This document shows, one piece after another, positions 165 to 49,931 of a stretch of 64,000 bases of DNA (its first letter is position 1; each line of letters opens with the position of its first letter). The notes beneath the pieces are model-generated. The model saw only the letters and a program-made list of their open reading frames with translations. It was not told where the DNA came from and did not search any database. The position numbers and the translations under genes were made by a program. Origin of the DNA: an uncultured bacterium (GTDB lineage: Bacteria > Pseudomonadota > Alphaproteobacteria > Rs-D84); assembly GCA_950096895.1 (NCBI GenBank), contig CATNBF010000001.1, positions 20,853 through 84,852 of the forward strand, in the 5' to 3' direction.

Positions 165-193
165 TTGCGTAAAATCGCGCAAAGGGCTAGAAT
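165..193 (+). promoter_or_regulatory. sigma70-type promoter of Cys-rich locus 1 (TTGCGT - 17 nt - TAGAAT)
   Basis: The block cttgcgtaaaatcgcgcaaagggctagaattcct is repeated verbatim at 13620-13652 and in diverged form at 14836-14867. It lies outside the inverted repeats. Confidence 0.6.
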
Positions 194-216: not shown

Positions 217-258
217 CTATGCCTAATTCAAAGGGTGGTTTAGATTAGGCATAGTTTT
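217..258 (+). terminator. leader hairpin (ctatgcctaat / attaggcatag, 16-nt loop) followed by TTTT in this cassette orientation
   Basis: 11-bp stem at 217-227 / 244-254, then tttt at 255-258. The same hairpin at locus 3 is followed by ttaggtc instead. Confidence 0.5.
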
Positions 259-321
259 CGTTCCAAAAATCCCCATTTTCTGCCCCTTTTTTATGACTTA
301 ACTATGCCTAATCTAAACCAC
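235..321. promoter_or_regulatory. invertible DNA switch, OFF-like orientation (IRL 235-256, cassette 257-299, IRR 300-321)
   Basis: Perfect 22-bp inverted repeat gtggtttagattaggcatagtt / aactatgcctaatctaaaccac. The 43-bp cassette is the reverse complement of the cassette at 14927-14976. Confidence 0.75.
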
Positions 322-1041
322 GGTTTTTTATTATTGGCCGCGGTTATGGCGGCAGCCCCGGCATGCGGGGCAATCCCGGGCGGGATTTGCGGCAAGCTAA
401 GCCCGGATTATCCCTTAAATGGTGTTGTTGTACCGGGTGGCGCGTTTATAAATGGGGCCATAGTGCCCGATAAACATTATTCTTGCGCATCTGATGTCTG
501 GGAATTAGACGATGTTGTCAGCAATTACCAATGCATTGAATTCACCGATATTCGATTAAAAAGTACAGAAAAAAACAAAGAATTTTATACATTAAGTGGA
601 TGTACATACGCCGGATTTGGTTGTCATCTGAACAATATTGTATACACCAAGGCTGGCACCCCACAATGCCGCGAATGCACCGGAAATCGCGTGGTGTATC
701 CCCTGCGTCGTACATAATATGAAGATATTAATGGTGTCCACAACGCATATATCCATAACAAAACTGTGTGCGAATACTGTGACAATGGATATTACATCAT
801 GATGCCAGAAATAAATCCCGGCACAGGCCCCACATGCAGAAAATGCCCCGATGCAGATTTTCCCGCAGATGAAATATACTCGTGGGGTGATGGCGGTGTT
901 GATACATGCATGGCATTGATTTATATCGATCCAGACACTGATGGCGTTCATGGTCAAGATGATTCTGGGCAATATATCATCACATATAATTCAGATGACA
1001 TGATGTATGAAGATACAATTGCGTGCCCCTATCGGCCATAA
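304..1041 (+). pseudogene. Cys-rich secreted protein, paralog 1, interrupted by an in-frame TAA at 715-717
   Basis: It starts with arm-encoded MPNLNHGF plus a signal peptide (LLLAAVMAAAPACG). ORFs 304-717 and 766-1041 share one frame and are separated only by a single TAA (..PLRRT*YEDINGVHNAYIHNKTVCEYCDNGYY..). CxxC and CxxCP motifs occur on both sides. Confidence 0.6.
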
Positions 1042-10327: not shown

Positions 10328-10882
10328 ATGTCAGGAAAGTTGAAATCAGTGGCGGTATATTGCGGCCATCAATTTGGTACCAATCCCGCATATGCCTGTG
10401 ACGCGGCAAAAATCGGGGAAATGTTGGCCCAAAATGGTATACGATTGGTTTTTGGCGGGGGCAATGTTGGATTAATGGGCACGGTTGCAAACGCGGCATT
10501 GGCCGGCGGTGGCCATGTGACTGGCATCACCACCCATGACGTTGTCGCAAAACAAGAACCATTGCATGATAATCTGGATTGCTTTGAAATTGTTGATGGT
10601 GTAAATGAACGCAAACAAAAAATGTTTGAACTGTCTGATGGTTTTATCATCTTGCCTGGGGGCACCGGCACATTAAATGAATTAACAGACATCATGACGA
10701 TGCAGCAGATTGGTGAAACATCCAAGCCGCTATTTTTTATGAATACAGAAAATTTCTGGGGGCCATTTGCCCGCTTGTTGGTGCATATGAAACGCACAGG
10801 ATTTTTTGTTCGTCCCCAAGATTATAACATGCATGGGGCAAATACGGTCGAAGAATTAATGGATCTGGTTTTGAATTATTAA
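10328..10882 (+). CDS. LOG family / TIGR00730 Rossmann-fold nucleotide-binding protein
   Basis: Motifs GGGNVGLMG and PGGTGTLNEL. Confidence 0.8.
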   Translation: MSGKLKSVAVYCGHQFGTNPAYACDAAKIGEMLAQNGIRLVFGGGNVGLMGTVANAALAGGGHVTGITTHDVVAKQEPLHDNLDCFEIVDGVNERKQKMFELSDGFIILPGGTGTLNELTDIMTMQQIGETSKPLFFMNTENFWGPFARLLVHMKRTGFFVRPQDYNMHGANTVEELMDLVLNY

Positions 10883-13620: not shown

Positions 13621-13649
13621 TTGCGTAAAATCGCGCAAAGGGCTAGAAT
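13621..13649 (+). promoter_or_regulatory. sigma70-type promoter of Cys-rich locus 2 (TTGCGT - 17 nt - TAGAAT)
   Basis: Identical to the block at 165-193. Confidence 0.55.
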
Positions 13650-13690
13650 TCCTGGTATTGCGGGGAATTTAACTATGCCTAATCCAAAAG

Positions 13691-13777
13691 GACGTTTTTC
13701 TGGCATAGTTTTTTGAAAAATAAAATCCCAGATTTCTGCACTTTTTTATCCCCCATGATACGCCTAATCTAAACGTC
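13691..13777. promoter_or_regulatory. decayed copy of the invertible switch, OFF-like orientation
   Basis: The left arm is gacgtttttctggcatagtt, with its core deleted. The right arm is atacgcctaatctaaacgtc. The cassette at 13711-13757 has the same orientation as locus 1, and the leader hairpin is followed by tttttt. Confidence 0.6.
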
Positions 13778-14836: not shown

Positions 14837-14864
14837 TTGCAAAAAATCATTCCAGTGCTAGGAT
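14837..14864 (+). promoter_or_regulatory. sigma70-type promoter of Cys-rich locus 3 (TTGCAA - 16 nt - TAGGAT)
   Basis: Occupies the same position as the promoters of loci 1 and 2 within the conserved leader. Confidence 0.5.
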
Positions 14865-14907
14865 TCCTGTGGCGTTACCAGAAAATTTACTATGCCTAAT
14901 CCAAAGG

Positions 14908-14995
14908 GTGGTTTAGATTAGGCATAGTTAGGTCACAAAAAAAGGTGCAGAAAATGGGGATTTTTGGAAAGAGATTTATGCCTAATCTAAACCAC
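14908..14995. promoter_or_regulatory. invertible DNA switch, ON-like orientation (IRL 14908-14926, cassette 14927-14976, IRR 14977-14995)
   Basis: Perfect 19-bp inverted repeat. The cassette is the reverse complement of 257-299. It places AAGGTG (14942-14947), 6 nt and ATG (14954) in frame with the arm-encoded MPNLNH. Confidence 0.8.
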
Positions 14996-16216
14996 GGGTT
15001 TATTCTGGGGATGGCGGTTTTATTGCCATGCGCGGCATTTGGTGCAACATGTGATGGGCAAACCCAAAATAATTGCCCCAGTGGTTGTTATTGGGCGACA
15101 ATCGGGCTACCTAATGCATCGACTTCCTGTAGAGCATGTCCCCATGGTTATGATTACTCTACAAACGGCGCAAGCCAACAAGGGCAATGCTATAAAACTG
15201 CATCGTTTCCCCCATATCAAGCGATAAACTGCTATTATCGCTCAGACACCGATTGTCAAAATATCCCGAAATGCGGGGATACTCAGAACTGCACGCAGTG
15301 TGATTTTGTATGCACTAATGATGCCCATATAGAGCATGATGATGGTAACCAAAACATTCCCTGTAAATGCGCCTTAGATGAACGTGATTGCGCCGATCAA
15401 GATAAATATGGCGGGGCCGACGGAATCGCCAGCTGCACCGAAAAATGGAACGCGGACAACCAAGAATATTTTCTAAATAAATTAACTTGCAAGTCAAACT
15501 ATATCAAACATAATAATCAATGCATCATAAATGAAAAAGATTGTGATTCAATGCCAACACATGCCAAGACTTGTAAAATGATATGGGATTCGGAAAAAAA
15601 CGACTATGTAATGCACTTGACATGTGACAAAAACTATATTGCCATTGATAATAAGTGCAAAAATATTACGGAGACGGATTGTCTGACATATATCCTGGGA
15701 CAGCAGGAGCTAAAATCACTATACCAGGCTTGCACCACCAATCATGGCAATTTTCATATTACCGGAAATTTGACAACGGAATCGGGACAAGCATCCCTGC
15801 GTAATTGTCTTTGTAAAAAAACGGGGGCCACCCAAGTGTCCGGTGGTAAATGTTACCAGGCCTATGCATTAGTGGGATCGACCGGCAATTATACATGGGC
15901 CGATAACACACATTGGGCAGATTGTGTATGCAAGGATTACTTTTGCCCGAACGAAACCCATGGATGTGCAATCCCGGCCGAAAATGAATATTGGGACAAA
16001 GATTCAAGGGAATGCCAAACCTGTCCAATGGGAACCAAAACCAAATTCGGCAATGACACCGATGCCTATGACAGAAATCCAAAACGCACCGCCGGATCCG
16101 CCGCATGTTTCGTAGACCGCACGACCACATTCTGTGATGCATTTGGGTGTTTTAATCTGGAGGATATTTCCGATACCAATCGGTCATATTTGATAGAGAA
16201 TACAAACAACAAATAA
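14954..16216 (+). CDS. Cys-rich secreted protein, paralog 3 (intact)
   Basis: MGIFGKRF-MPNLNHGFILGMAVLLPCAAFG signal peptide, then about 400 aa rich in CxxC and C-x2-CP-x-G motifs. The alternative start is the arm ATG at 14978; the track ORF starts at GTG 14945. Confidence 0.8.
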   Translation: MGIFGKRFMPNLNHGFILGMAVLLPCAAFGATCDGQTQNNCPSGCYWATIGLPNASTSCRACPHGYDYSTNGASQQGQCYKTASFPPYQAINCYYRSDTDCQNIPKCGDTQNCTQCDFVCTNDAHIEHDDGNQNIPCKCALDERDCADQDKYGGADGIASCTEKWNADNQEYFLNKLTCKSNYIKHNNQCIINEKDCDSMPTHAKTCKMIWDSEKNDYVMHLTCDKNYIAIDNKCKNITETDCLTYILGQQELKSLYQACTTNHGNFHITGNLTTESGQASLRNCLCKKTGATQVSGGKCYQAYALVGSTGNYTWADNTHWADCVCKDYFCPNETHGCAIPAENEYWDKDSRECQTCPMGTKTKFGNDTDAYDRNPKRTAGSAACFVDRTTTFCDAFGCFNLEDISDTNRSYLIENTNNK

Positions 16217-16236: not shown

Positions 16237-16662
16237 ATGCATATCAACAAAAAAATCCCGTATAAATTGGGTAAAAAATTAACCTTGATGGCCGTTGGCG
16301 GCGCAACATTGTTTGGGGCATGTTCCAAAGAAAACAATGGCACCGATGAAATCTTGCCGAAACACGATATCGAATTGACATTTACCGAAGATAATTTCGA
16401 TCATATCGCATCAGATTCTGTGCGTGCGGCATTGGCACGACCGGATGTCGCCATGGTTTATTTATTGCCCAAAAATTATTTTAGCTTTAACCGCAATGAA
16501 ATTAATATTTTGCGCACGGCCGTTCTGGAACCATTAATCGAATTAGACCCCAGCCGCGTTACCGGTCGCGGGGATTTCTATTTCCGTCATGGTATGGTCA
16601 GCGCGAACGACAGCCTGTGGTACATTAAAAACAATTGGACCATTAACCAAAAGAAACGTTAA
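16237..16662 (+). CDS. lipoprotein, unknown function, probably co-transcribed with paralog 3
   Basis: Lipobox LFGA|C. There is a 20-nt gap after the upstream stop, with AAGGAG in front of the ATG. Confidence 0.6.
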   Translation: MHINKKIPYKLGKKLTLMAVGGATLFGACSKENNGTDEILPKHDIELTFTEDNFDHIASDSVRAALARPDVAMVYLLPKNYFSFNRNEINILRTAVLEPLIELDPSRVTGRGDFYFRHGMVSANDSLWYIKNNWTINQKKR

Positions 16663-16719: not shown

Positions 16720-17269
16720 ATCGCCTGGGGATGGTCATAATGGGATGCCGGGGCGGCCAATTATATCCGCCCCGCCCCATGATGCGAATTTTCCATAATC
16801 AAATCGTACGATCATATTAAGCTTATGAAATCTGATCTTGGACCAACGTCATCAATGTCATCCAAGGCCATAGATTCAATATCCAAACAATCGCACATCT
16901 GTATGCATTTCATATCCCACGCATGCCCTATGATCATCCAGACTTTCTATACATGATATAACGGATAAATGATCGCGCAAAATCAATTTCATCCCACGAA
17001 TATCATGGCATTATTTATGGCGCATCAATTCATCCGACATTAAACCATACTCACTTATAAATCCCAAAGAAGCGATCAAGACAACAACGGTCTCAAATGC
17101 GATACGATCGTGGTGAAATAAAACAACCAAATGGCGTCAACACATCCCAAAATAAAATACAAAAGCGTTATATCGACACCATGAACACGCCCCACGGGCC
17201 CATGACATGGTTACCCCATCCTGGGGTGCGGGGCGTGACATGTAAAAAAAACGCGGGATGCACATACCC

Positions 17270-19846: not shown

Positions 19847-19877
19847 TATAAGTGTGAGCGTGGAGGAAAAAGAGCCT

Positions 19878-21782
19878 ATGAGAATGATTAACCGCATCTT
19901 GACAGTTTTTTTAGCCGTCGTAACGATGGCAACATCGGCGCATGCCGTACCGGCCGCGTGCAAGAGCGAATTGTATCGTCGTGCCCATCCGGAAAAATGC
20001 ACCGAAAAAAAATCAAATTCTTTTCTGTCGCGCAACGCGATCTGGATTGGTGGTGGGGCCGTGGCGGCCGGCGCAGTGGCCTTGGTTGCAATGGCGGCCG
20101 GTGGCGGATCCAGCTCTGGGGCCACGGCACATGTGCAATCGACCAATGATTCAAACTTTGCATTTGGGGCACCCAATGTTCCCCAGTATTCTTTGCCCAC
20201 ATTAAGCATTTATAACCGCGTGGGCTATACAGATCCGAAACTGTTGGCGGCGGCCCGTAAAACAACCCGCTATGCCCGTAATGCGGCCCAATACGAAGAT
20301 ATTCGCCTGGCCTATTCCTTGGCACGTGGATATACCGGCAAAAATTCAACCATCGCCATTTTGGACACGGGCGACTATGGCTATCATGGAACCGCAGTCA
20401 AAAACATTGCCGGCGGTGCCATTGCCCCGGATGTAAAAATCAACGAACACAAAATCGTTGATAACCACGGTGAATTCATTACATACGACAAAATTGCGAA
20501 CATCATCGCCAACGATACATCTGCCAACATTTTTAACGCCAGCTGGGGCACAGAATCCCAGGCCGGCCTGAACGCGGCAACAATTAAAAATCGGGCGCAA
20601 ATTGTTAACCTGACCAGTGAATCTTTTGTTAACGAAATCACATCGGCGGCCCAAAATCGCGATGCCATCTTTGTCTGGGCAGCGGGCAATGACCACAAAT
20701 CCCAAAGCACGGCCTTGGCCGCCATGCCGTTGGTGGTACCAGAACTGGATGGGCACTTTATTAATGTTGTCGCATGGGACAGCCGGACCAATTCGCTGGC
20801 CGATTACAGCAATGCATGCGGCGCAACCCAAATGTATTGCATCACGGCCCCGGGCACAGATATGAACGTTGGCATTGGCAGCGCATCCGGGACCAGCTTT
20901 GCTGCGCCGATTGTTTCAGCCGCGGTGGCGGTAATTCGTGAAGCATTCCCATACATGACCGCCGGCGAAATTACCAGTCTGTTGTTCACGACCGCCCGTG
21001 ATTTGGGCACCCCGGGTGTTGATGAAATTTATGGGTGGGGCATGCTGGATCTGGAACGGGCGCCACGACCGGTGGGGGCCACATTGGTCTCTATCGACGA
21101 TAACGTCATGGCACCAATGCAGACCGCCCGCGCCGCCGGTGTTATTGGCCGCCAGATCAAGTCCGCCAACCTGCGCTTTGCATTCTTTGACAGCTTTGGT
21201 CGTGCCTTTGACGCCAAATTAAACGACAGTATTAATTTCCGCCCAATGGGTCGTGCCATTGAACGCGTCCGCGGTAATGCCGACATGTCTGTATCATTGG
21301 GCAACATGGATTTTGGATTCACACGCAGCAACCTGTTGGCATCTGATGGATTCTTGCGCACAGGTGAACGTGACCTGATGGGCTTTGTCGGGATGCGCGG
21401 TGAAATGATGCTGGGGGATGTTCGCCTGTTCCAGCGCACACGCATGGGATTCAGTGCCCCAACCGCCGCCCGCGATTCCATGATCCGTGAATTTTCAAAT
21501 ATCATCAGTGCATCTGTCACCCTGGGGGCAACGTATGGGGACTGGACATTCACAGTGGGTGCCCCAGAAACAATCGTTTCAGGTGACATGACACTGCGTC
21601 TGGCGACCGGTCGTGCGGCCGATGGACAAATCCAGTATCGCAATCATCGCGTTTCTTTGGTTGAAACCCGCCCGGCAATGGAATACACCGCGAAATACAA
21701 GTTCATCACCGCCGGTTATATTGATAATCCGTCCGGAACCGATGAATTCTATGTCATGGCACGCGGCCAGGTCAGCTTTTAA
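19878..21782 (+). CDS. subtilisin-like (S8) serine protease with a C-terminal autotransporter-like beta domain
   Basis: Triad contexts ILDTGD, YHGTAV and GTSFAAPIVSAA. Signal peptide MRMINRILTVFLAVVTMATSAHA. The C-terminus ends ..ARGQVSF, an aromatic terminus typical of OMPs. Confidence 0.75.
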   Translation: MRMINRILTVFLAVVTMATSAHAVPAACKSELYRRAHPEKCTEKKSNSFLSRNAIWIGGGAVAAGAVALVAMAAGGGSSSGATAHVQSTNDSNFAFGAPNVPQYSLPTLSIYNRVGYTDPKLLAAARKTTRYARNAAQYEDIRLAYSLARGYTGKNSTIAILDTGDYGYHGTAVKNIAGGAIAPDVKINEHKIVDNHGEFITYDKIANIIANDTSANIFNASWGTESQAGLNAATIKNRAQIVNLTSESFVNEITSAAQNRDAIFVWAAGNDHKSQSTALAAMPLVVPELDGHFINVVAWDSRTNSLADYSNACGATQMYCITAPGTDMNVGIGSASGTSFAAPIVSAAVAVIREAFPYMTAGEITSLLFTTARDLGTPGVDEIYGWGMLDLERAPRPVGATLVSIDDNVMAPMQTARAAGVIGRQIKSANLRFAFFDSFGRAFDAKLNDSINFRPMGRAIERVRGNADMSVSLGNMDFGFTRSNLLASDGFLRTGERDLMGFVGMRGEMMLGDVRLFQRTRMGFSAPTAARDSMIREFSNIISASVTLGATYGDWTFTVGAPETIVSGDMTLRLATGRAADGQIQYRNHRVSLVETRPAMEYTAKYKFITAGYIDNPSGTDEFYVMARGQVSF

Positions 21783-22423
21783 CCATCGACATTTTCATAA
21801 CTGACATTGAATGTTTCTAAATCAGGGATTTCAATCCCCCGCCCCATCAAGAATCGATTCAACGTATCACGATGGACACGTAATCGCCGCGCCAAGATAT
21901 AACGACTGTTACCACTGTATAACTGTTGACAGATATATTTTTCACGCGTGGCCAGTTTGGCGGCATTACGACTGCCCAGGGGCCGACCCACATGACGTCC
22001 TTCGGATTTAACACGGGCCAAGGCCTCCTTGGTGCGTTGCGATATCAAATTCCGTTCAATTTCCGCCGACAATCCAAATGCAAATGCCAAAACCTTGCTG
22101 GTGATATCACTGCCCAGGCGATAATTATCCTTGATCGTCCAAACGCGTGCCCCAATATCCATACAGTAGTGCAAAATACTCATAATCTGTAATAAATTAC
22201 GCCCCAGACGGGATAGTTCTGATGCAATAATTAAATCGTCTTTGCCAATTTTTTTAATCAGTCGCCCCAACTTTCGCTTGTTCAAATCAACCGTCGACGA
22301 AATTGTTTCTTCGATCCATTTATCGACCACAATATTTTCTTTTTCACAGAACTTTTGTATTTCAAAGCGTTGATTCTCCGTCGTTTGGTGGTCGGTCGAA
22401 ACGCGGATATATCCGTAAATCAC
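21779..22423 (-). CDS. small serine recombinase (resolvase/invertase family)
   Basis: N-terminal MIYGYIRVSTDHQTTENQ (catalytic Ser motif), ELSRLGRN, and a C-terminal HTH (ILARRLRVHRDTLNRFL). 214 aa. Confidence 0.85.
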   Translation of the reverse strand: MIYGYIRVSTDHQTTENQRFEIQKFCEKENIVVDKWIEETISSTVDLNKRKLGRLIKKIGKDDLIIASELSRLGRNLLQIMSILHYCMDIGARVWTIKDNYRLGSDITSKVLAFAFGLSAEIERNLISQRTKEALARVKSEGRHVGRPLGSRNAAKLATREKYICQQLYSGNSRYILARRLRVHRDTLNRFLMGRGIEIPDLETFNVSYENVDG

Positions 22424-22610
22424 GTTTTGCCTCCTTTGGCTGGTTGTACAATTATTTTTTTTGTATACGCTTATATTCCTAAATTACTTTTTGAAATATG
22501 CAAGTATTTGTTTTTACGTATTTTTTATGAATTTATTCCAGATCAAATAAAATGCTTGATGTCGTATAAAAAACTTTACTATCATGATTATTAAAGAAAG
22601 GTGGGATACA

Positions 22611-25600
22611 ATGGCACACAAATCATCAAACACACGAAATTCTGGACATTTGGTTAAAAAAACGCGCACCCGGGTTGGATTATGGGGACGTCTTGTTTAT
22701 GCCGCGATCGCGGTTATCGTCGTGACCGCTGGGGGATTTGCATGGCATCACCACACCAAGGCAAACGAACAAACCGCCACATATAAATTAACACTGGATA
22801 CGCCAACACCCGCTCGATACATGGATACCAACCCTATTATCATGACGGTTGGACCAAATCGTGTTGCCATGCCAGAAATTAATCCCGACCGGGATATGGC
22901 GGCCCCAACACCATTGCGTATTTATTATAGCTTTGAATCAGGTAATTACGCGCCCGCCATGCGCATGGATTTAGATGCGGCAAATTTGGCCAACGCAATA
23001 AAAATGACACCCGCCATACGGGGAAAATGGACCATGCCTAATCCCAACATGCTGATGTTTACGCCCGATGGAAATTGGCCCGCCGACACAAAATTCCGGA
23101 TTAAAATTTCCCCCCGATTAATCAACAGCGATGTTCATGTTAATTCACGCAAAGTCACCTTTGTAACACCACGCGTTGCCGGCACCGTCGACAGCTTTGA
23201 CGTCTATCCCACCGGCCGGGGCACAGTTACCGGGGTTGGGGTTGTTTCTTTTAATTATCCTGTATCAGGTATCTCAAACGCGACCACGGTTAAATTAAAC
23301 GGCAACCGAATCCATTCTGATGTGCGCATGGATACCAATAACCGCACCGCGATTATAACCACCCAACCAATTCCTGTGCGTGATATCGAACAATCATTGT
23401 CACTGGGGATATCAGGTGCCACGCCGACCCGCATATCGGCCAACACAACGATCGCCGCGGCGGATAACTTTTTCAAAATTACCGATATCACCACCGCCGC
23501 CGTTGATGATGAATCCGGTACCCCCCGCCAATTAGTTATTATTACAACCAGTGCCGCCGTCCGCGCCGATACAGATTGGCAAAAATTTATTGATGTATAC
23601 TTGCTGCCGCGGCAACGGGATACAGATGAACGATCATCCCATCGATGGGCCACAGACGAAATTACACCCGATGTCTTGAAAAAGTCCAAGAAGTTATCAA
23701 TCACCCCAACAAATTTAATCAGCCCCAATGGCACATATCAATATGCATTTTCATATGATGTATCAGATGCAAATACGCGCTATATCTATGTGACGGTGCG
23801 CGAAGGGATTATGTCTGATATTGGTTTTGCAACCGGGGCAACAGTTGATAAAACCATGACAGTCCCATATCCGCAACGCAGTGTTAAAATCGCCGGCGAT
23901 GGGGCGTTGTTAAGTCTGAATGGGGATCAAAAAATCGGCATCGTCGCCCGGGGTGGTGTCAATGCGGCATACATTAATGTATCCAAGATCAAAGATACGG
24001 AAATCAATCATTTAATTTCGCAAACGTATAATATCTTTACACCCTTGAACTTTAAGTCTTGGTCATTCGGCGTTGATGATATGGCGGTCGTATTCAAAAA
24101 AAGAATTCCTTTTTCCAATACATCACCAACACGCGTTAACTATGCATCGGTGGATTTGGGCGAATACCTGAATAAAACACCGGGCGATAAAACAGGGATC
24201 TTTGTTATCCAATCTGGCACAACGCAATCGGCGGCTGATTATAATGACCGACGGTTAATCTTGATGACCAATATGGGCATTATTCGCAAGATTAATTCAA
24301 ATGGATCATCGGCGGTCTTTGTATCATTATTAGATTCTGGTGGTCCGGCCGGTGGTATTGATGTATCTGTGTTGGGGCGCAATGGAAATACCGTTTGGAC
24401 CGGCGTAACCAATGAACGCGGACGCGTGGATATTCCGGTATTAAAATGGAACGAATACCGAGGCGCACGCGAACCCATCGCGATCGTTGCACGTAATGGT
24501 TCTGATGTGTGCTTTGTCCCCTATGATGCGGGGGGCGAACAAATGGTCGAATATTCCAAGTTCGATACAGGCGGCGTTTATGCCACCCCCAATGGCGCAT
24601 TGAATGCCTATGTCTTTTCAGACCGTGGTATTTATCGCCCAGGTCATGAATTAATCATCGGGGCAATTGTTCAATCAGAAAGCGCAAAATCAACCGCCGG
24701 CATCCCTGTCCGTGTCATGATCGATGATGCACGCGGGCGCAGTATCTTGGATAAAAAAATATCCCTGGGTACTGATGGCATGTTTGATGTGCGCTATCGC
24801 CTGGGGGCGGATGCCCCATTGGGGGAATATACGGTAACCCTGTATTCCATCAACAGTCGTCATAACACCAATGACGACGTTATCGGTCGGACCACGTTCC
24901 GCGTTGCAGAATTTACCCCCGATACGATGAAAATCAATACAAAAATCAATAATGCATCCGACGTGGGCTGGATTTCCCCATCAGACATGACGGCAAATGT
25001 CACATTAAATAACCTGTTTGGCACGCCGGCACAAAATCGACGCATTACCGCACGGGCGACACTAAGCCCCAGTCAATTCCGCTTTGATCAATTTCCCGGC
25101 TATGCCTTTACCCCCAATATTATTGGTAATTCGGGTCTGGCCGCGAATTCTGGGGTTGTCCCACGACCAATAACCATGGAATTGGCCGATGTTCGTACCA
25201 ACGATAATGGGGATGCGGTTATCAAGATTGACTTTGATCGTTCCATCCCATCGGGCACATATGTATTAAATCTGAACGTACGGGGATTCGATGGTGATGG
25301 CGGACGCAATGTCGAAATGACCACCACTGCCCGCGTTTCTGATGCGACACACCTGGTTGGATGGCGGGCGGATGGTAATTTAGACTATATCAATCGGGGC
25401 ACAACACGATCTGTGCACATTGTGTCTGTGGACACCAGCGGCACCGCCGCCCCCACAGATGATTGGCGCATGCGCGTGATTGCCCGCGAAAACTTGACCA
25501 GTTTGATCAAGGACGCATCTGGATATTATAAATATCAGTCAACCATCCGGGATCGCGTGATTCGCACCACCCCATTAACCATCCCAAAAGATGGGCAATC

Positions 25601-28310
25601 GGTAACATTGGATACCACGGTTCCAGGAACCTATACAATCCAGATTATCGATAAAAACGACCGCGTTTGGGCATCAATACCGTACTTTGTTGCCGGGACA
25701 AAAAATATCACCATGACACGTGACAGTGCGGCCGAATTAACAATCAAGTTAAACCGTTCAGAATACGCACCCGGTGACAATGTTGCGGTTTCAATTACGG
25801 CCCCCTATGCCGGGACAGGTTTGATCACCATTGAACGCGACCGGGTCTATGCGTATAAATGGTTTAACACCACCGACACCACATCGGTACAATACATACG
25901 CATTCCCGATGATTTTGACGGCAGTGGTTACATCAATGTGTCCTTTGTCCGGGATATCAACAGTCGGGACATCTTTACATCACCCTATACCTATGCGGTG
26001 ACCCCATTTACTGCCCGCGATCCGTCACGGAAAATCAACATCACCATATCGGCACCGAAAAAGATCGAGACAAAAAAATTAAACATTGAATACAACGTAT
26101 CACAATCATCACGACTGATGATCTTTGCCGTTGATCGCGGCATCTTACAGGTGGGCCGATATACATTGCCCCGCCCGTTGGCACATTTTTACCAGAAATA
26201 TGCCCTGGGGGTGCAAACGTATCAAATTTTATCTTTGATCTTGCCTGAATATCGAATTTTGAACCAATTCGCCAAAACCGGCGGCGGCGATTATGATGGC
26301 GGGGCAAATGGAACCGCCCCCCAGACCAATCCTTTTGGGCGGCGCGTGGCCGAACCGGTGGCGTTCTATTCTGGAATTATTAATGCCCATGCCAATAAAC
26401 CAGGTCATGTGACATTTGATATCCCAGAATATTTTAATGGTCAACTGGATATTTATGCCGTGGCGGCATCATCACATGCCGTCGGATCGGCCAGTACGAA
26501 TACCACCGTCCAATCACCGGTTATGGTAACGCCATCTATGCCCTTGTTTGCCGCCCCAGGCGACACATTTACCGCCGGGGCCATTATTACCAACACCACA
26601 GATGATGCCCATTTGTCGGTGGATGTAACGGCATCAAAAAACATCCAGATCACCACCAATACCACCCACCAAATGGACATTCCCAATGGCAGTGAAAAAT
26701 TGTTACCAATTGGTATACGTGCATCAGATGTTGGCCCATCGGAAATTCAATTCGTGGCCAAAACAGATGCCGCCACACCATATACCGCCAATGCCACAGC
26801 AACAATGACGGTGCGCCCGATATCCACATTTGAATCTGTTATTCGCACCGGCGTAATAACCCAAGATCGAACAACCGTACGTCGGTTTAACGTCGACATG
26901 TATCCCGACAATCGAACCCGTCAAATATATATCAGCCGGGGCAACGCCGTATGGATGCGCCCGCTGATGCAATACTTGGATCAATATGATTTTGATTGCA
27001 GTGAACAACTGGCCTCGCGCGCGTTGGGGTATGTGTTGATGCCGAATAATAAAATCTTGGGCACAACATATGACACCGCGGCGAAACGCGTTAATAACGC
27101 GATTACCAAACTGCGTGGGCGTCAAAATCCCAATGGATCATTTGCCCTGTGGCCGGCGGATGACAGTGGCGATCACACGCCGGGTGTAACGGCATATGTC
27201 ACAGAATTCTTGATGGATGCACGCGACGGCGGTTTTACCGTTTCCCCCGAAATGATTTCACGGGCCGTTGATTACATGCGGGATGTGGCCGGTATGCCTG
27301 TGACAGACCAGACGGATTTATCCACCCAGGCATGGTTAATCTATCTGATTACACGGGCCGGATATGTTACAACAAATTACATCAGTGCATTCGAAGAATA
27401 TGCCAACAAAAATGCACCCAATTGGCCCCAGACAATTTCGGGCCCATATATCGCAGCGGCATATAAAATATTAAAACAATCCGATCGGGCGGACCAGATA
27501 CTGGGGCAATATCGGGCCCATACCGGTGCGCCAGAATATCGGTCTATGTTTAATAACACCGTGGCCAACGACGCCATTGCGGCATACATTACGCGAACAT
27601 ATTTTGGAATGGAAAATGATCAATTAATCCAGGCCATCCGTACCTATATCAACCGTGGCAATTATACCAGTTATACATCCGCCATGGCGATCCGGGGATT
27701 GGCCGGGAAACCGAATTCAGACCCATTGCCAGAATTTACCGTAACCGCAGACAAGACAACCATCCCAGGAAGCGTATCAGAATCCATGTGGACGGCCGAC
27801 ATTGCCGATAACATAGACACATTGACCATCAATTGTCCAACATGCGACACATCCCCCATGACATATACCATCATTATGGCGGGATATCCACGTCATGTGC
27901 GTCCCACCGAACAAGGCATCGAAATAACCCGTCACTATTATGACGCATCTGGCCATCGCATCACATCGGCAAAACTGGGACAAGATGTCACGGTTAAAAT
28001 CACCGCACGCGCCATTGGCGACGCCGATAACATCCCCAATGTGGCCATTGTTGATATGTTACCTGGGGCGTTTAACGTCATGCCCGAAACACTGGCCGGC
28101 AATATGACCCATGGCGAAGTCCGCGAAGACCGTGTCTTGATCTTTGCCAATATAACGCGGATGGGCCAAGAATTTACCTATACCGCGACGGCTGGTATTG
28201 TCGGGGACTTTGCGGTTCCCCCTATTTCGGCGGCCTCTATGTATAACCCCGGAATTCGCGCCATTACGAATTCTTCACGGATTATTGTGACGGATGACAC
28301 GGGGCGGTAA
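22611..28310 (+). CDS. bacterial alpha-2-macroglobulin family protein (membrane-anchored, thioester-containing)
   Basis: About 1900 aa with an N-terminal TM helix. CSEQ thioester motif at 26997-27008. It is followed by pbpC, the classic pairing. The start is placed at the ATG behind AAGGTGG; the track ORF starts at 22584. Confidence 0.85.
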   Translation: MAHKSSNTRNSGHLVKKTRTRVGLWGRLVYAAIAVIVVTAGGFAWHHHTKANEQTATYKLTLDTPTPARYMDTNPIIMTVGPNRVAMPEINPDRDMAAPTPLRIYYSFESGNYAPAMRMDLDAANLANAIKMTPAIRGKWTMPNPNMLMFTPDGNWPADTKFRIKISPRLINSDVHVNSRKVTFVTPRVAGTVDSFDVYPTGRGTVTGVGVVSFNYPVSGISNATTVKLNGNRIHSDVRMDTNNRTAIITTQPIPVRDIEQSLSLGISGATPTRISANTTIAAADNFFKITDITTAAVDDESGTPRQLVIITTSAAVRADTDWQKFIDVYLLPRQRDTDERSSHRWATDEITPDVLKKSKKLSITPTNLISPNGTYQYAFSYDVSDANTRYIYVTVREGIMSDIGFATGATVDKTMTVPYPQRSVKIAGDGALLSLNGDQKIGIVARGGVNAAYINVSKIKDTEINHLISQTYNIFTPLNFKSWSFGVDDMAVVFKKRIPFSNTSPTRVNYASVDLGEYLNKTPGDKTGIFVIQSGTTQSAADYNDRRLILMTNMGIIRKINSNGSSAVFVSLLDSGGPAGGIDVSVLGRNGNTVWTGVTNERGRVDIPVLKWNEYRGAREPIAIVARNGSDVCFVPYDAGGEQMVEYSKFDTGGVYATPNGALNAYVFSDRGIYRPGHELIIGAIVQSESAKSTAGIPVRVMIDDARGRSILDKKISLGTDGMFDVRYRLGADAPLGEYTVTLYSINSRHNTNDDVIGRTTFRVAEFTPDTMKINTKINNASDVGWISPSDMTANVTLNNLFGTPAQNRRITARATLSPSQFRFDQFPGYAFTPNIIGNSGLAANSGVVPRPITMELADVRTNDNGDAVIKIDFDRSIPSGTYVLNLNVRGFDGDGGRNVEMTTTARVSDATHLVGWRADGNLDYINRGTTRSVHIVSVDTSGTAAPTDDWRMRVIARENLTSLIKDASGYYKYQSTIRDRVIRTTPLTIPKDGQSVTLDTTVPGTYTIQIIDKNDRVWASIPYFVAGTKNITMTRDSAAELTIKLNRSEYAPGDNVAVSITAPYAGTGLITIERDRVYAYKWFNTTDTTSVQYIRIPDDFDGSGYINVSFVRDINSRDIFTSPYTYAVTPFTARDPSRKINITISAPKKIETKKLNIEYNVSQSSRLMIFAVDRGILQVGRYTLPRPLAHFYQKYALGVQTYQILSLILPEYRILNQFAKTGGGDYDGGANGTAPQTNPFGRRVAEPVAFYSGIINAHANKPGHVTFDIPEYFNGQLDIYAVAASSHAVGSASTNTTVQSPVMVTPSMPLFAAPGDTFTAGAIITNTTDDAHLSVDVTASKNIQITTNTTHQMDIPNGSEKLLPIGIRASDVGPSEIQFVAKTDAATPYTANATATMTVRPISTFESVIRTGVITQDRTTVRRFNVDMYPDNRTRQIYISRGNAVWMRPLMQYLDQYDFDCSEQLASRALGYVLMPNNKILGTTYDTAAKRVNNAITKLRGRQNPNGSFALWPADDSGDHTPGVTAYVTEFLMDARDGGFTVSPEMISRAVDYMRDVAGMPVTDQTDLSTQAWLIYLITRAGYVTTNYISAFEEYANKNAPNWPQTISGPYIAAAYKILKQSDRADQILGQYRAHTGAPEYRSMFNNTVANDAIAAYITRTYFGMENDQLIQAIRTYINRGNYTSYTSAMAIRGLAGKPNSDPLPEFTVTADKTTIPGSVSESMWTADIADNIDTLTINCPTCDTSPMTYTIIMAGYPRHVRPTEQGIEITRHYYDASGHRITSAKLGQDVTVKITARAIGDADNIPNVAIVDMLPGAFNVMPETLAGNMTHGEVREDRVLIFANITRMGQEFTYTATAGIVGDFAVPPISAASMYNPGIRAITNSSRIIVTDDTGR

Positions 28311-30654
28311 AAAAATCTTGGTTGGGATTTGCGGTGGCATCATTGCCATATGCGTTATATTGCGTATGTTTGTGATGCCACCATTGATGGCGGACGTTCC
28401 GTTTTCAAATGCGTATTATGATCGCAATGGGGAATTGTTGCGATTGACACTGGCGGCAGATGATAAATATCGATTGTATACGCCGCTATCTGAAATCGCC
28501 CCGGCGTTACGTAATGCCACTGTTTTATACGAAGATCGATGGTTTTTCTTTCATCCCGGGATCAATCCTATATCCTTGATCGGGGCAACCATTAACTATT
28601 TTACCCACCACACCCGACCCATCGGGGCATCAACCATCACGATGCAGGTTGCCCGTATGAAATACGATTTGGATACGACGCAACCAGGGGGCAAATTTAT
28701 TCAAATTATCGCCGCACTGTATATTGATCTGTTCTATTCTAAAAACGATATTCTCGAAGCATACTTAAACATGGCCCCCTATGGCGGAAACATCGTTGGG
28801 ATCGGCGCAGCGGCCCGAATTTACTTTGATCGCAATGCCGCCGATTTATCCCAAATAGAATCCATCACATTATCCACAATTCCGCAAAATCCGACACGAC
28901 GTGGATTACACAGTCCAAATGGATTGGCGCATGTACGCCAGATGCGACAAGATCTGGTGCGACGGTGGATCAAACGCTATCCAAATGATACAGAATTATT
29001 AACCATGGCCGATATGGATTTGGATGTACGCAGTCGCCAAGAATTGCCCTTTGCCGCCCCACATATGATCGACCGATTGATCCAGCAAGCCCAACATAAT
29101 GCCGCCCCCATCCCACAATCTGGGATAATTCATACCACAATCGATGCAGAATTAAATCGCCGATTAAATAATGCATTAACCCGGGAAATTGCGCGACGTC
29201 GATCCAGCGGTGTGGAAAATGCCGCCGTGTTGTTGATCAATTATCGAACCATGGAAACACACGCCTATATCGGATCAGCCGACTATTTCGACAAATCAAT
29301 TTATGGCGAAAATGATGGTGTCTATGCGCGACGCAGTCCGGGTTCAACACTAAAACCATTAATTTATGCCATGGCCATAGACCAAGGTTTAATTCATTCG
29401 ATGACATTACTGCGTGATGCACGCATTAACTTTGGGGTTTATGCCCCAGAAAATTCCGATAGTGAATTTTACGGTCCGGTCTTGGCCAAAGATGCATTAA
29501 ACCATTCGCGCAATATCCCGGCAATTGATCTGGTGCGGCGTGGCGGGATACGACATTTTTATCAATTATTGCGTGATGTGGGTATATCACACCTGCGGCC
29601 GGTGGAACATTATGGTGTCTCGATGGCCTTGGGCGGGGCCGAAGTATCGATGGCAGAACTGGCGAAAATTTATGCCACTATCGCAAACCTGGGGCGGGTA
29701 CAGCAAATTCGCATGCGTCAAGATACCCCATCCCAAGATGGACCACAACTGTTATCTGCCGAAGCTTTTTTTCTAACCCTGGATATGATGCGCCACGCCC
29801 CCAGCGGTTCGACGCGCATCGCGTATGCCCGAACATCAGACACCCCCATTGATCATTACTGGAAAACCGGTACATCATCATCTTATCGTGACGCATGGAC
29901 CGCTGGTATCTTTGGCGATTATGTGTTGGTTGTCTGGGTGGGTAACTTTGACGGGCGTCCCAACAACGCATTCAGCGGGGCCAAAACCGCCGCCCCTATT
30001 TATTTTCGCATGGCAGACGTCGTACGCGATTACGATGCCGCCCGTGGTCATCCTATTCAAAATCCAGACTTTTTACGCGATGGGTTAAATGTCACAAAAA
30101 TCGACATGTGCGATGATGTTGGTGGCATTGCGGGTGCGTATTGCCCGAAAAAAATAGCGGCTTATTTCATCCCAGGTACATCACCCATCGATATTTCACC
30201 GGTATACCGCGCGATCCCCATTGATCGATCCAGTGGTCTGCGTGCATGCCGTCCCGATCCCGATACAACGCAAATGAAAGTATATGAATTTTGGGATGCC
30301 GAATATCTGGATATGTTTCGCCGGGCCGGCATTACACGTCATACCCCGCCGGCATTTATCCCAGGATGTGATCTGGACACGATTTCTGATGCCACCACAC
30401 CACCCGTTATAACATCCCCCGTGGATCGAACACGCATTATTATCACCGACGAAACAGATAATGCGATGGTTTCAATGTCTGCTGTAACGACCAGCATGGA
30501 TAAAACATTGTTTTGGTTTTTAGATAACGCACTGGTTGGGACATCTTCATCGGGTGAAACCATCACATACCACACCCCCATTGGGGAACATAACTTGCGC
30601 GTGGTTGATAGTACTGGGACTGCCACAAAAATTAATTTTAGCGTTGCGAAATAA
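28294..30654 (+). CDS. pbpC: penicillin-binding protein 1C
   Basis: Transglycosylase motifs EDRWFFFHPGINP and GASTITMQ, plus a transpeptidase domain. 786 aa. It overlaps the A2M gene by 17 nt. Confidence 0.88.
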   Translation: MTRGGKKILVGICGGIIAICVILRMFVMPPLMADVPFSNAYYDRNGELLRLTLAADDKYRLYTPLSEIAPALRNATVLYEDRWFFFHPGINPISLIGATINYFTHHTRPIGASTITMQVARMKYDLDTTQPGGKFIQIIAALYIDLFYSKNDILEAYLNMAPYGGNIVGIGAAARIYFDRNAADLSQIESITLSTIPQNPTRRGLHSPNGLAHVRQMRQDLVRRWIKRYPNDTELLTMADMDLDVRSRQELPFAAPHMIDRLIQQAQHNAAPIPQSGIIHTTIDAELNRRLNNALTREIARRRSSGVENAAVLLINYRTMETHAYIGSADYFDKSIYGENDGVYARRSPGSTLKPLIYAMAIDQGLIHSMTLLRDARINFGVYAPENSDSEFYGPVLAKDALNHSRNIPAIDLVRRGGIRHFYQLLRDVGISHLRPVEHYGVSMALGGAEVSMAELAKIYATIANLGRVQQIRMRQDTPSQDGPQLLSAEAFFLTLDMMRHAPSGSTRIAYARTSDTPIDHYWKTGTSSSYRDAWTAGIFGDYVLVVWVGNFDGRPNNAFSGAKTAAPIYFRMADVVRDYDAARGHPIQNPDFLRDGLNVTKIDMCDDVGGIAGAYCPKKIAAYFIPGTSPIDISPVYRAIPIDRSSGLRACRPDPDTTQMKVYEFWDAEYLDMFRRAGITRHTPPAFIPGCDLDTISDATTPPVITSPVDRTRIIITDETDNAMVSMSAVTTSMDKTLFWFLDNALVGTSSSGETITYHTPIGEHNLRVVDSTGTATKINFSVAK

Positions 30655-49007: not shown

Positions 49008-49931
49008 TTATTCATCATCATCCATCCCGGCACGGGGGTGGGCATTGTTATAGATTTTTGAAATTTCGGCCATATTTACCCGCGTATACAATTGCGTTGT
49101 CGACAATGACGAATGCCCCAATAATTCTTGCAGGGTACGTAAATCTGCCCCATCGGACAGTAATGCCGTCGCAAACGTATGACGCAACGCATGCGGCGTC
49201 ACATAATCTGGCAATTGCAAATAATGACGCAACTTTTCAACCACTTTTTGCGCCATTCGGGCCGTCATTACATGGCCACGCACACTGCAAAACAAAGGAT
49301 CATCGGGCCCATTGCCATCCGGGCGCACGGCAATGTATGCATCAATTGCGTCATAGACCGCCGGCAAAACCGGAATTAGACGCTCTTTGGATCCCTTGCC
49401 CACAATACGTAACGTATCTGGTCGGGATGCCACATCACGATTGGTCAGCCCCAATGCCTCTGACACACGTAACCCGCACCCAAACAGCACCACCACCAAC
49501 GCCCAATCCCGGGCGGCAATCCATTGACAATTTGAATCAATCACAGAAATGGCATCATGCATATCTGCGACATCTGTTGATTCAATGGCCTTGGACAGCG
49601 TTCGTGGCACCTTTGGCGCGGCGATTAATTCAATATATTCGTTTTGGATTTGATGTGTTTTACGCAAGAATTTATAAAACGTTCGCAACGCAGCCAATGC
49701 ACGTGCCGTAGATTTATGTGTCATATGACGCCGAACCCGGTCGGCCATCCATGCCCGAAAGACCGTTGTATCGGCCGTCCCCATATCATGGGGCAAAATA
49801 TCCGCGCCACGATATATGGCATAAAATTTTAACATATCGGCAATATCACGCTGATATGCGTTAATCGTGTGCGCGGAATATTTTTTTACACACGCCAAAT
49901 AATCTAAAAATTCGGCGATAATATTATTCAT
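49008..49931 (-). CDS. XerC/XerD-type tyrosine recombinase
   Basis: C-terminal HALRHTFAT and LLGHSSLSTTQLYTRV motifs. 307 aa. Confidence 0.85.
   Translation of the reverse strand: MNNIIAEFLDYLACVKKYSAHTINAYQRDIADMLKFYAIYRGADILPHDMGTADTTVFRAWMADRVRRHMTHKSTARALAALRTFYKFLRKTHQIQNEYIELIAAPKVPRTLSKAIESTDVADMHDAISVIDSNCQWIAARDWALVVVLFGCGLRVSEALGLTNRDVASRPDTLRIVGKGSKERLIPVLPAVYDAIDAYIAVRPDGNGPDDPLFCSVRGHVMTARMAQKVVEKLRHYLQLPDYVTPHALRHTFATALLSDGADLRTLQELLGHSSLSTTQLYTRVNMAEISKIYNNAHPRAGMDDDE

Follow-up and report, generated by a model that had tools for sequence, protein, structure and literature searches.

Evidence for compact invertible DNA switches ahead of secreted-protein genes, with a candidate Mpi-family invertase, in an uncultured Rs-D84 alphaproteobacterium

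Introduction

Why would two related gene leaders in one bacterial genome carry the same short segment in opposite orientations? The question is raised by a 64,000-nt stretch of DNA from an uncultured alphaproteobacterium of the order Rs-D84 (positions 20,853 to 84,852 of contig CATNBF010000001.1 in assembly GCA_950096895.1; hereafter the window), in which three loci, here named L1 (165-321), L2 (13621-13777), and L3 (14837-14995; window positions throughout), had been read from the letters alone as sharing one leader design and forming a multi-locus DNA inversion switch. Members of Rs-D84 have genomes of <1 Mb and are thought to depend on partner organisms (PMC12306168), and our literature search turned up no report of DNA inversion in this lineage. 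Here, we followed up that sequence-only reading, and its multi-locus DNA inversion is supported: we consider it likely, at a probability of roughly 70%, that each locus is built as a compact invertible switch whose segment is flipped by an Mpi-family invertase, giving phase-variable expression of a secreted or surface protein.

Such switches would matter in several respects. They would extend phase variation by Mpi-type master invertases from Bacteroidales to an order of uncultured gut Alphaproteobacteria, for whose partner-dependent lifestyle variable surface proteins may be central; a single 84-bp flip could govern both transcription termination and translation initiation, and a segment this short would set a lower bound on the DNA needed between serine invertase sites. 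In practical terms, the 19-mer repeat arm described below would be a simple marker for finding such switches, and the module could serve as a natural component, very small in size, for genetic memory devices built on recombinases.

Results and discussion

Two window loci carry one segment in opposite orientations

The 19-mer arm GTGGTTTAGATTAGGCATA has exact copies at 235-253(+), 303-321(-), 14908-14926(+), and 14977-14995(-), which form two inverted pairs, and a copy with 3 mismatches at 13759-13777(-) in L2, i.e., five matches in the window against 0.01 expected by chance. The inverted repeats are perfect over 22 bp at L1 and 19 bp at L3, as the first reading had it (19-22 bp), and stop abruptly at their outer end with zero outward extension; at both loci they bound a segment in the manner of an invertible switch, with a spacer of ~50 bp between them. 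The L3 copy of this spacer is the reverse complement of the L1 copy: global alignment scored 31, with 38 identical bases, after reverse complementation and -11 in the forward direction, and the 23-nt core TTCCAAAAATCCCCATTTTCTGC lies at 261-283(+) in L1 and at 14947-14969(-) in L3 (0 expected). The reversed spacer, on which the whole proposal turned, thus survived realignment.

At L3, a promoter predicted from sequence (14837-14864, plus strand; -35 TTGCAA at 14837-14842, 16 nt, -10 TAGGAT at 14859-14864) lies outside the invertible segment and is followed by site 1 (14890-14927, plus strand), the feature first described as a leader hairpin, which reads CTATGCCTAATCCAAAGG-GT-GGTTTAGATTAGGCATAG and holds a 26-bp site of 12-2-12 layout (14896-14921) with the central dinucleotide GT at 14908-14909. 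Site 2 (14982-15007, plus strand) reads CTAATCTAAACC-AC-GGGTTTATTCTG, with its centre AC at 14994-14995, and its inner half together with ATG makes up the right arm. The 84 bp between the central dinucleotides (14910-14993), which by in-silico flip are the reverse complement of the L1 segment, stand in what we call the ON orientation and contain a Shine-Dalgarno (SD) sequence, AAGGTG (14942-14947), followed after 6 nt by an ATG (14954-14956; SD to ATG, 14942-14956, plus strand) that is in frame with ATGCCTAAT at 14978, as had been claimed. The gene that begins there (14954-16216, plus strand) encodes a 420-aa Cys-rich (37 Cys) secreted protein with the N-terminus MGIFGKRF-MPNLNHGFILGMAVLLPCAAFGA; a search for homologues of this protein returned itself as the sole match, and the switch-controlled proteins matched no Pfam family.

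At L1, the promoter (165-193, plus strand; -35 TTGCGT at 165-170, 17 nt, -10 TAGAAT at 188-193) precedes a site-1 hairpin (217-254, centre GT at 235-236) and then the U-tract TTTTCGTT (255-262), which together (217-262, plus strand) are predicted to act as an intrinsic terminator while the segment stands OFF. The segment measures 83 bp (237-319), and site 2 (308-333, plus strand) reads CTAATCTAAACC-AC-GGTTTTTTATTA with its centre AC at 320-321. Flipped in silico, L1 gives AAGGGG-cagaaa-ATG and the peptide MGIFGTKT in frame, again in agreement with the earlier proposal. The gene remnant behind it (304-1035, plus strand) has the start MPNLNH and an in-frame stop at codon 138 (715-717), and the Cys-rich frame runs on for ~105 codons beyond this stop that follows codon 137; another strain (L036) has a different, earlier nonsense mutation in the same gene. 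L2 (13621-14726, plus strand) is a decayed switch (13621-13777) with a pseudogene: the promoter is identical to that of L1 and the spacer is oriented as in L1, the left arm has been destroyed (site 1 lacks its inner half), the right arm is the 3-mismatch copy, the start codon is ACG, and the open reading frame (ORF) is frameshifted. Of the leader design ascribed to three loci, L1 and L3 are therefore true examples and L2 a decayed copy, and L3 is, as stated at the outset, the only locus with an intact ORF.

The hairpin also needed correction. Given as 11 bp, the site-1 stem pairs over 15 bp when folded, interrupted by a single internal mismatch and closed by a loop of 6 nt (-15.6 kcal/mol at L1 and -17.4 kcal/mol at L3), and what had been overlooked is that this hairpin is the partner recombination site, doubling as the predicted terminator stem. 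A generic promoter and terminator scan of the window called none of these promoters, and its one call of the hairpin was at L3, on the minus strand.

Segments of this family are found in both orientations in relatives

Is the difference between L1 and L3 the mark of a segment that flips? In a sister species (P0019), one locus located after tsf and with the same flanks was present in six independent assemblies, and its 48-nt spacer stands in one orientation in four of them (L037, L040, L041, L043) and as the exact reverse complement in the other two (L039, L042). Orthologous loci in two Enterousia metagenome-assembled genomes (MAGs), L002 and L003, have ~95% identical flanks and are set apart by an exact inversion, which takes in the innermost base of each arm, and within one mouse-gut genome site 1 of L006 and L017 is identical at 34/34 positions and the spacers match (48/51) only after reverse complementation. 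Both orientations at a single locus of the sister species mean that this switch family flips in nature and, together with the reverse-complemented spacer between the window paralogues, uphold the attribution to DNA inversion rather than RNA folding. At the P0019 locus and at L002/L003, the flipped segment carries a promoter-like sequence (TTGACA or TTGACT, 17-18 nt, and a -10-like hexamer).

Contig ends also fall at switches. Contigs assembled from short reads break off at the switch, or only a few bases from it, at L012, L019, L033, L048, L049, L055, and L056, the last of these 5 nt past the central dinucleotide; branching of an assembly graph by mixed orientations or a multicopy module would either fit.

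The sites have the layout of serine invertase sites across the lineage

A genome scan with the 19-mer arm, which had been suggested as a check beyond the window, returned 25 loci, all in MAGs of gut Alphaproteobacteria, including Ca. Enterousia, with mouse, goat, roe deer, and human among the sources. A metagenome scan with the 23-nt spacer core in either orientation of L1/L3 gave 0 matches, and a second metagenome scan with the 19-mer arm gave one locus, L031. Each unit runs ATGCCTAAT, ATTAGGCAT, ATGCCTAAT, and its spacer measures 49-52 nt; other genomes contain both an alpha form (gene start MPNLNH) and a beta form (gene start MPNPKGG), between which the opposite half of the palindromic site 1 faces the spacer and the gene-side site always matches that half. 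That shufflon-like recombination between loci gave rise to these forms found no support, as a crossover at the centre cannot interconvert them.

We compared 34 sites from 17 units, oriented on the central dinucleotide, and found AAASS-NN-SSTTT to be invariant in all 34. Site 1 has the consensus TATGC-CTAATCTAAACC-AC-C[C/G]TTT..ATTAG-GCAT and is a 12-2-12 palindrome with two well-conserved half-sites, and site 2 is the inner half-site of site 1 joined to a degenerate outer half that keeps only AAACC/GGTTT. The partner sites of the window, whose centres lie 83-84 bp apart, become identical exactly at the GT dinucleotide, with GG vs CC as the adjoining bases, and GA/TC takes the place of this centre in two other species, where it is likewise equal in both partner sites. 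This is the hix/gix type of layout, i.e., inverted half-sites of ~12 bp about a non-palindromic 2-bp centre that is matched between partners; the phage Mu gix sequence, taken from record AF083977, is TTATCCAAAACC-TC-GGTTTACAGGAA, with the same 12-2-12 and AAASS-NN-SSTTT arrangement. Identity that starts at the 2-bp centre fits a 2-bp serine-type crossover and not a tyrosine-type overlap of 6-8 bp, and the crossover would fall at the central GT/AC dinucleotide.

A tyrosine recombinase working through a 6-8 bp overlap within the palindromic arms is nevertheless a reading to be weighed, since an Xer-type enzyme (Phage_integrase) is encoded in the window at 49008-49931 (cf. Mycoplasma Xer1 on vpma) and an alternative parsing of site 1 gives 11-bp arms about a 6-bp asymmetric centre, CCTAATCCAAA-GGGTGG-TTTAGATTAGG. 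The central 6 bp are indeed equal in both partners at the beta-type and GA/TC-type loci; at L1, L3, and L014, however, the partners differ at 2 of these 6 bp (GGGTGG vs CCGTGG), and heterology in the overlap region normally blocks tyrosine recombinases. We give this reading little credence, given also the exact start of identity at the 2-bp centre, the hix/gix layout, and the presence of a lineage-conserved Mpi-family invertase, beside which the Xer-type enzyme is the weaker candidate.

The repeats might also have inverted their spacer with no dedicated enzyme at all, through template switching or intramolecular recombination. Small hairpin-loop inversions are common in plastid non-coding DNA, and perfect repeats about so short a spacer (~50 bp) could extrude as a hairpin or cruciform. 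Such an origin is very improbable here: the arms are 100% conserved in >10 species while their flanks have diverged, the sites have an invertase-like half-site structure with a matching conserved invertase, and two loci (L031 and L010) keep a repeat of only ~9 bp, yet a flip at their centre gives an exact in-frame fusion.

Some units have other arrangements. At L031 (2160-2275) and L010, site 2 has no copy of the inner half of site 1, and the ~9 bp inverted repeat surrounds the centre; as found, AAACCACC...GGTGGTTT and a T-run form a different terminator hairpin, and an in-silico flip at the centre restores a canonical palindromic site 1 and GGGGG-6-ATG (MGILSKKKTTKKSGG) in frame with the gene body. 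L001 (3430-3640) has a degenerate extra site and a second, opposite spacer upstream of a normal unit (three sites, two spacers), and L005 (1990-2115) has one spacer between two full palindromic sites; the L001 and L005 arrangements may be traces of recombination between units.

A conserved, unlinked Mpi-family invertase is the candidate enzyme

The minus-strand gene at 21779-22423, named as the recombinase when the window was first read, encodes a 214-aa Mpi-family serine DNA invertase: it passes the NCBIfam model NF009949 (master DNA invertase Mpi family equivalog; 298.7 bits, cut-off 272, residues 1-196 of 214), matches Pfam Resolvase at 1.7e-30, and has Gin as its closest solved structure (4e-13), aligning to Gin residues 1-142. 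Its translation contains the N-terminal YIRVST motif, within GYIRVST (catalytic serine motif), and SRLGRN (conserved arginines). Homologues with 75-90% identity and the same NCBI name are abundant in MAGs of Alphaproteobacteria and "Rickettsiales," and the order PBP1C, alpha-2-macroglobulin, recombinase, S8 protease, rpsB, tsf is kept in several species, from which we take the recombinase to be a core gene passed on by vertical descent rather than by a mobile element. Recombinase and switches are not neighbours (0/25 loci from the arm scan have a recombinase gene within 8 kb), and recombinase and switch units share one contig in three species (that of the window; L047; L037-L043). Its family and the form of the sites suggest that this invertase acts on the window sites.

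In the window, the recombinase gene belongs to a block (19854-30654) in which it shares 4 bp with the 3' end of an S8 subtilase gene convergent to it; beyond it lie genes for a 1908-aa bacterial alpha-2-macroglobulin and a PBP1C-type penicillin-binding protein, and the block is syntenic in related species. The corresponding neighbourhood in another species (P0016) has no site within 9 kb, and in a further one (P0003) two contigs stop just short of a switch. In the P0112 species (L051-L056, ~10660-10800), a switch lies between the S8 protease gene and a 267/297-aa gene whose start has been called variously (297, 267, or 73+ aa); both of its sites are fully palindromic with centres GA/TC, and it stands in a single orientation in 5/5 assemblies.

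What the flip would control

In the mechanism we propose, a fixed promoter would transcribe into palindromic site 1, the leader hairpin, with site 2 inverted 83-84 bp downstream and its inner half overlapping the conserved ATGCCTAAT. The unlinked, chromosomal invertase would bind both sites, cut at the central GT/AC dinucleotide, and invert the segment between them. In the OFF state, exemplified by L1, the site-1 RNA hairpin and the U-tract would act as an intrinsic terminator, and the gene's ATG would be left without an SD sequence; in the ON state, exemplified by L3, a non-U sequence would replace the U-tract, and the opposite strand of the segment would supply SD and ATG along with a short N-terminal stretch of positive charge, MGIFGKRF, that continues in frame into the signal peptide of the Cys-rich secreted protein. 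A family of proteins, secreted or on the surface, would in this way be expressed in a phase-variable manner.

The contents of the segment were compared across units in both orientations. Site-1 hairpins range from -9 to -21 kcal/mol, and among the 15 units without a promoter in the spacer, 12 have at least 6 U among the 10 bases after the hairpin in one orientation only; in-silico flipping leaves at most 3/10 in 11 of these 12, the exception being window L1 (6 as found, 4 flipped). An in-frame SD with ATG or GTG on the flipped strand is found at window L1 and L3, L014, five loci of the JAITJD MAG, and L031/L010, i.e., the coding potential of the cassette is conserved in four lineages, and the cassette peptides (MGIFGKRF, MSQKSGIFKNKK, VQKSGIFNLKI, MGILSKKKTTKK) are related and basic and would form the charged n-region of a signal peptide. 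At the sequence level, the segment thus holds an orientation-dependent element, a U-tract one way and an in-frame SD+ATG the other, with a promoter in some relatives, a pattern that suggests orientation-dependent terminator function.

Units differ in how much of this they contain. In the mouse MAG, the beta units lack a cassette, have an SD and ATG of their own beyond site 2, and appear to be terminator-only switches. The JAITJD MAG, a reduced genome, has 11 intact paralogues that are all called from an SD-less ATG with the start MPNPKGG, which is hard to explain without an ON state; a search with the in-silico ON form of one of them returned the 11 paralogues and no ON-form protein.

In the P0019 species (L037 16123-18869; also L039 and L040), the 145-aa gene behind the invertible promoter ends in the variable region (VR) of a diversity-generating retroelement (DGR). 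At L037, VR (16422-16554) and template region (TR; 16776-16908, 133 nt) differ at 20 positions, each of them an adenine in TR, a gene for a reverse transcriptase (RVT_1) follows downstream, and the C-terminus of the 145-aa protein is homologous (8e-10) to the switch-controlled family of 11 JAITJD paralogues. The proteins subject to phase variation may thus also be targets of DGR hypermutation; the window itself has no reverse transcriptase and no TR/VR pair.

Observations that weigh against an active switch

Several observations count against the proposed switch, either as a process still active in the window's own species or in the mechanism as drawn, and the Xer-type gene described above is one of them. 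For the window's species, we had the window and two assemblies covering L1 and L3, found by look-up of the window GroEL and 312-aa proteins, and one contig covering L1 (L036), found via the L1 protein cluster; the GroEL and 312-aa look-ups also gave a 2.2-kb contig, which is not among the sequences counted here. L3 is ON in 3/3 of these sequences (window and 2 assemblies) and L1 is OFF in 4/4 (window and 3 assemblies or contigs), with no alternative orientation at either locus, in consensus assemblies that report the majority orientation only and from which minority orientations would escape. The OFF form of the L3 protein (412 aa) was not on record in our look-up, and the polymorphism in relatives is seen directly only in the promoter-carrying member of the family, not in the SD-cassette member. 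Given that L1 and L2 are pseudogenes, the system here may be down to one gene, possibly locked ON.

These are the marks expected of a fossil, in which the L1/L3 difference records an old inversion and the family is active elsewhere, with L3 locked ON and L1 and L2 dead; the L1 nonsense mutations, the decay of L2, and L3 arms that are perfect over 19 bp and not 22 agree with it. We regard this account as unlikely, if by no means negligible: L2 shows how fast an unused switch decays, whereas the arms and central dinucleotides of L1 and L3 are still perfect, the recombinase ORF is intact and conserved, and a constant majority orientation is what consensus assemblies would report in any case. We infer that switching is ongoing in the window's own species.

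Other points concern the RNA and the DNA loop. A flipped L3 would have only a weak U-tract (5/10 bases), and minimum-free-energy folds of the full leader pair arm B with arm C (20-22 bp) in both orientations, so that RNA-level effects or RNase III processing may form a further layer. The same folds sequester the AUG at the start of arm C and so lend something to an RNA attenuator, in which hairpin A:B would alternate with helix B:C around a 9-codon leader ORF (MPNPKGGLD*) and DNA inversion would be incidental; the three elements are mutually complementary, and loop and gene-side sequence covary. This account is scarcely credible, since RNA pairing cannot explain reverse-complemented spacers or a polymorphic orientation at one locus, and the leader ATG has no consistent SD and the leader matched no Rfam family; a known RNA family was tried as a candidate and dropped, Rfam giving only sub-threshold, miRNA-like hairpin matches.

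For DNA inversion itself, the ~84 bp that separate the crossover points leave very little length for the sites to synapse in cis; for Hin, HU is required even when the loop is ~100 bp (PMC3798978). It is speculation that the conserved spacer centre (AAATCCCnnnTTTC) might bind an architectural protein; it may in part be a bending site, yet it also encodes the conserved peptide. We rate as an even call the joint reading that reduced-genome gut Alphaproteobacteria carry lineage-wide ~84 bp 'translation-start invertons', with one Mpi-family invertase serving 3 to >11 loci per genome, the recombination site serving as terminator stem, the U-tract and the SD/start/charged N-terminus lying on opposite strands, the spacer centre serving as a bending-protein site that enables the short loop, and the controlled genes of some species also being DGR targets, in which case targeted hypermutation and phase variation would affect the same surface proteins.

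Comparison with known inversion systems

Bacteroides invertible segments measure ~170-230 bp. There, the flipped segment carries a promoter, whereas the window segments measure 83-84 bp, have the promoter outside, and would flip a predicted terminator tail together with SD, ATG, and N-terminus, with another site sequence and in a reduced-genome alphaproteobacterial host. The enzyme is nonetheless alike, as the window recombinase passes the equivalog model of the family of Bacteroides fragilis Mpi (FinA). In Bacteroides, one unlinked serine invertase, Mpi, acts on many short inverted-repeat-flanked segments upstream of surface-structure genes (PMC4747536), and the title of Patrick et al. 2003 (cited in PMC3090145) calls the repeats of the B. 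fragilis invertible regions hin-like. The distance from Bacteroides invertons on which the sequence-only reading insisted was too great: the enzyme falls in the Bacteroides Mpi family, and some relatives flip a promoter.

The recombinase of Clostridioides difficile cwpV, RecV, is a tyrosine recombinase, and cwpV is a single locus. In sequence pattern, the window loci resemble cwpV in having the promoter outside the segment and a hairpin with a U-tract, predicted to terminate transcription, only in the OFF orientation. At cwpV, the promoter lies upstream of the invertible region, the recombinase is unlinked, and in the OFF state a stem-loop at the left-repeat junction and a poly-U form an intrinsic terminator; the repeats are imperfect over 21 bp, the segment measures 195 bp, and neither the ribosome-binding site (RBS) nor the ATG is part of the switch (Emerson et al. 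2009, PMC2784873). In the window, by contrast, the predicted terminator stem coincides with the recombination site, and the translation start, too, is found on the segment. The statement that an RBS/start cassette flips rather than a promoter accordingly stands for the window type, with the amendment that a predicted terminator tail would flip too, as in cwpV.

With Hin, Gin, Cin, and Pin, the window shares 26-bp 12-2-12 sites, half-sites with an A-tract and CC, and a non-palindromic central dinucleotide. Invertases of the Hin/Gin type flip segments of 1-4 kb, have their genes within or beside these segments, and depend on an enhancer bound by Fis (PMC3798978). The window segment is >10 times shorter, and no Fis or enhancer was identified, with no search aimed at enhancers. 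The vsa, vpma, mpl, and mba systems of Mycoplasma and Ureaplasma offer a further likeness, i.e., variable surface-protein gene families in reduced genomes. They use tyrosine recombinases with a recombination site at or near the coding 5' end, and expression needs a junction to the start region, a single promoter or expression site being moved between genes, or promoters being flipped; each gene in the window differs in having its own promoter and its own mini-switch. In our analysis, the window system resembles known ones in its Mpi enzyme family and presumed action in trans, its predicted cwpV-like terminator logic, and its hix/gix-like sites, and differs from them in the tiny segment, in the site that would be the terminator stem, in the SD, start, and N-terminus on the flipped segment, and in the host order Rs-D84.

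Promoters and neighbouring genes

Look-up of the 363-aa neighbour of L1 gave no match. L1, L2, and loci of other genomes have the promoter layout of L3 (TTG[CT]NN, 16-17 nt, TA[GT]AAT), ~25-30 nt upstream of site 1. In the L1 and L2 promoters, a palindrome, TTGCG-N7-CGCAA (165-183 and 13621-13639), covers the -35 element and part of the spacer, and the near-identical promoter-spacer sequence AAAATCGCGCAAA occurs at the switch loci of other species, which suggests a shared regulator-binding site at switch promoters. The 312-aa protein used above for look-up is encoded 2 kb from L1 (2249-3187, minus strand) and contains several weak helix-turn-helix repeats (HTH_28, HTH_Tnp_1, HTH_23, MerR_1).

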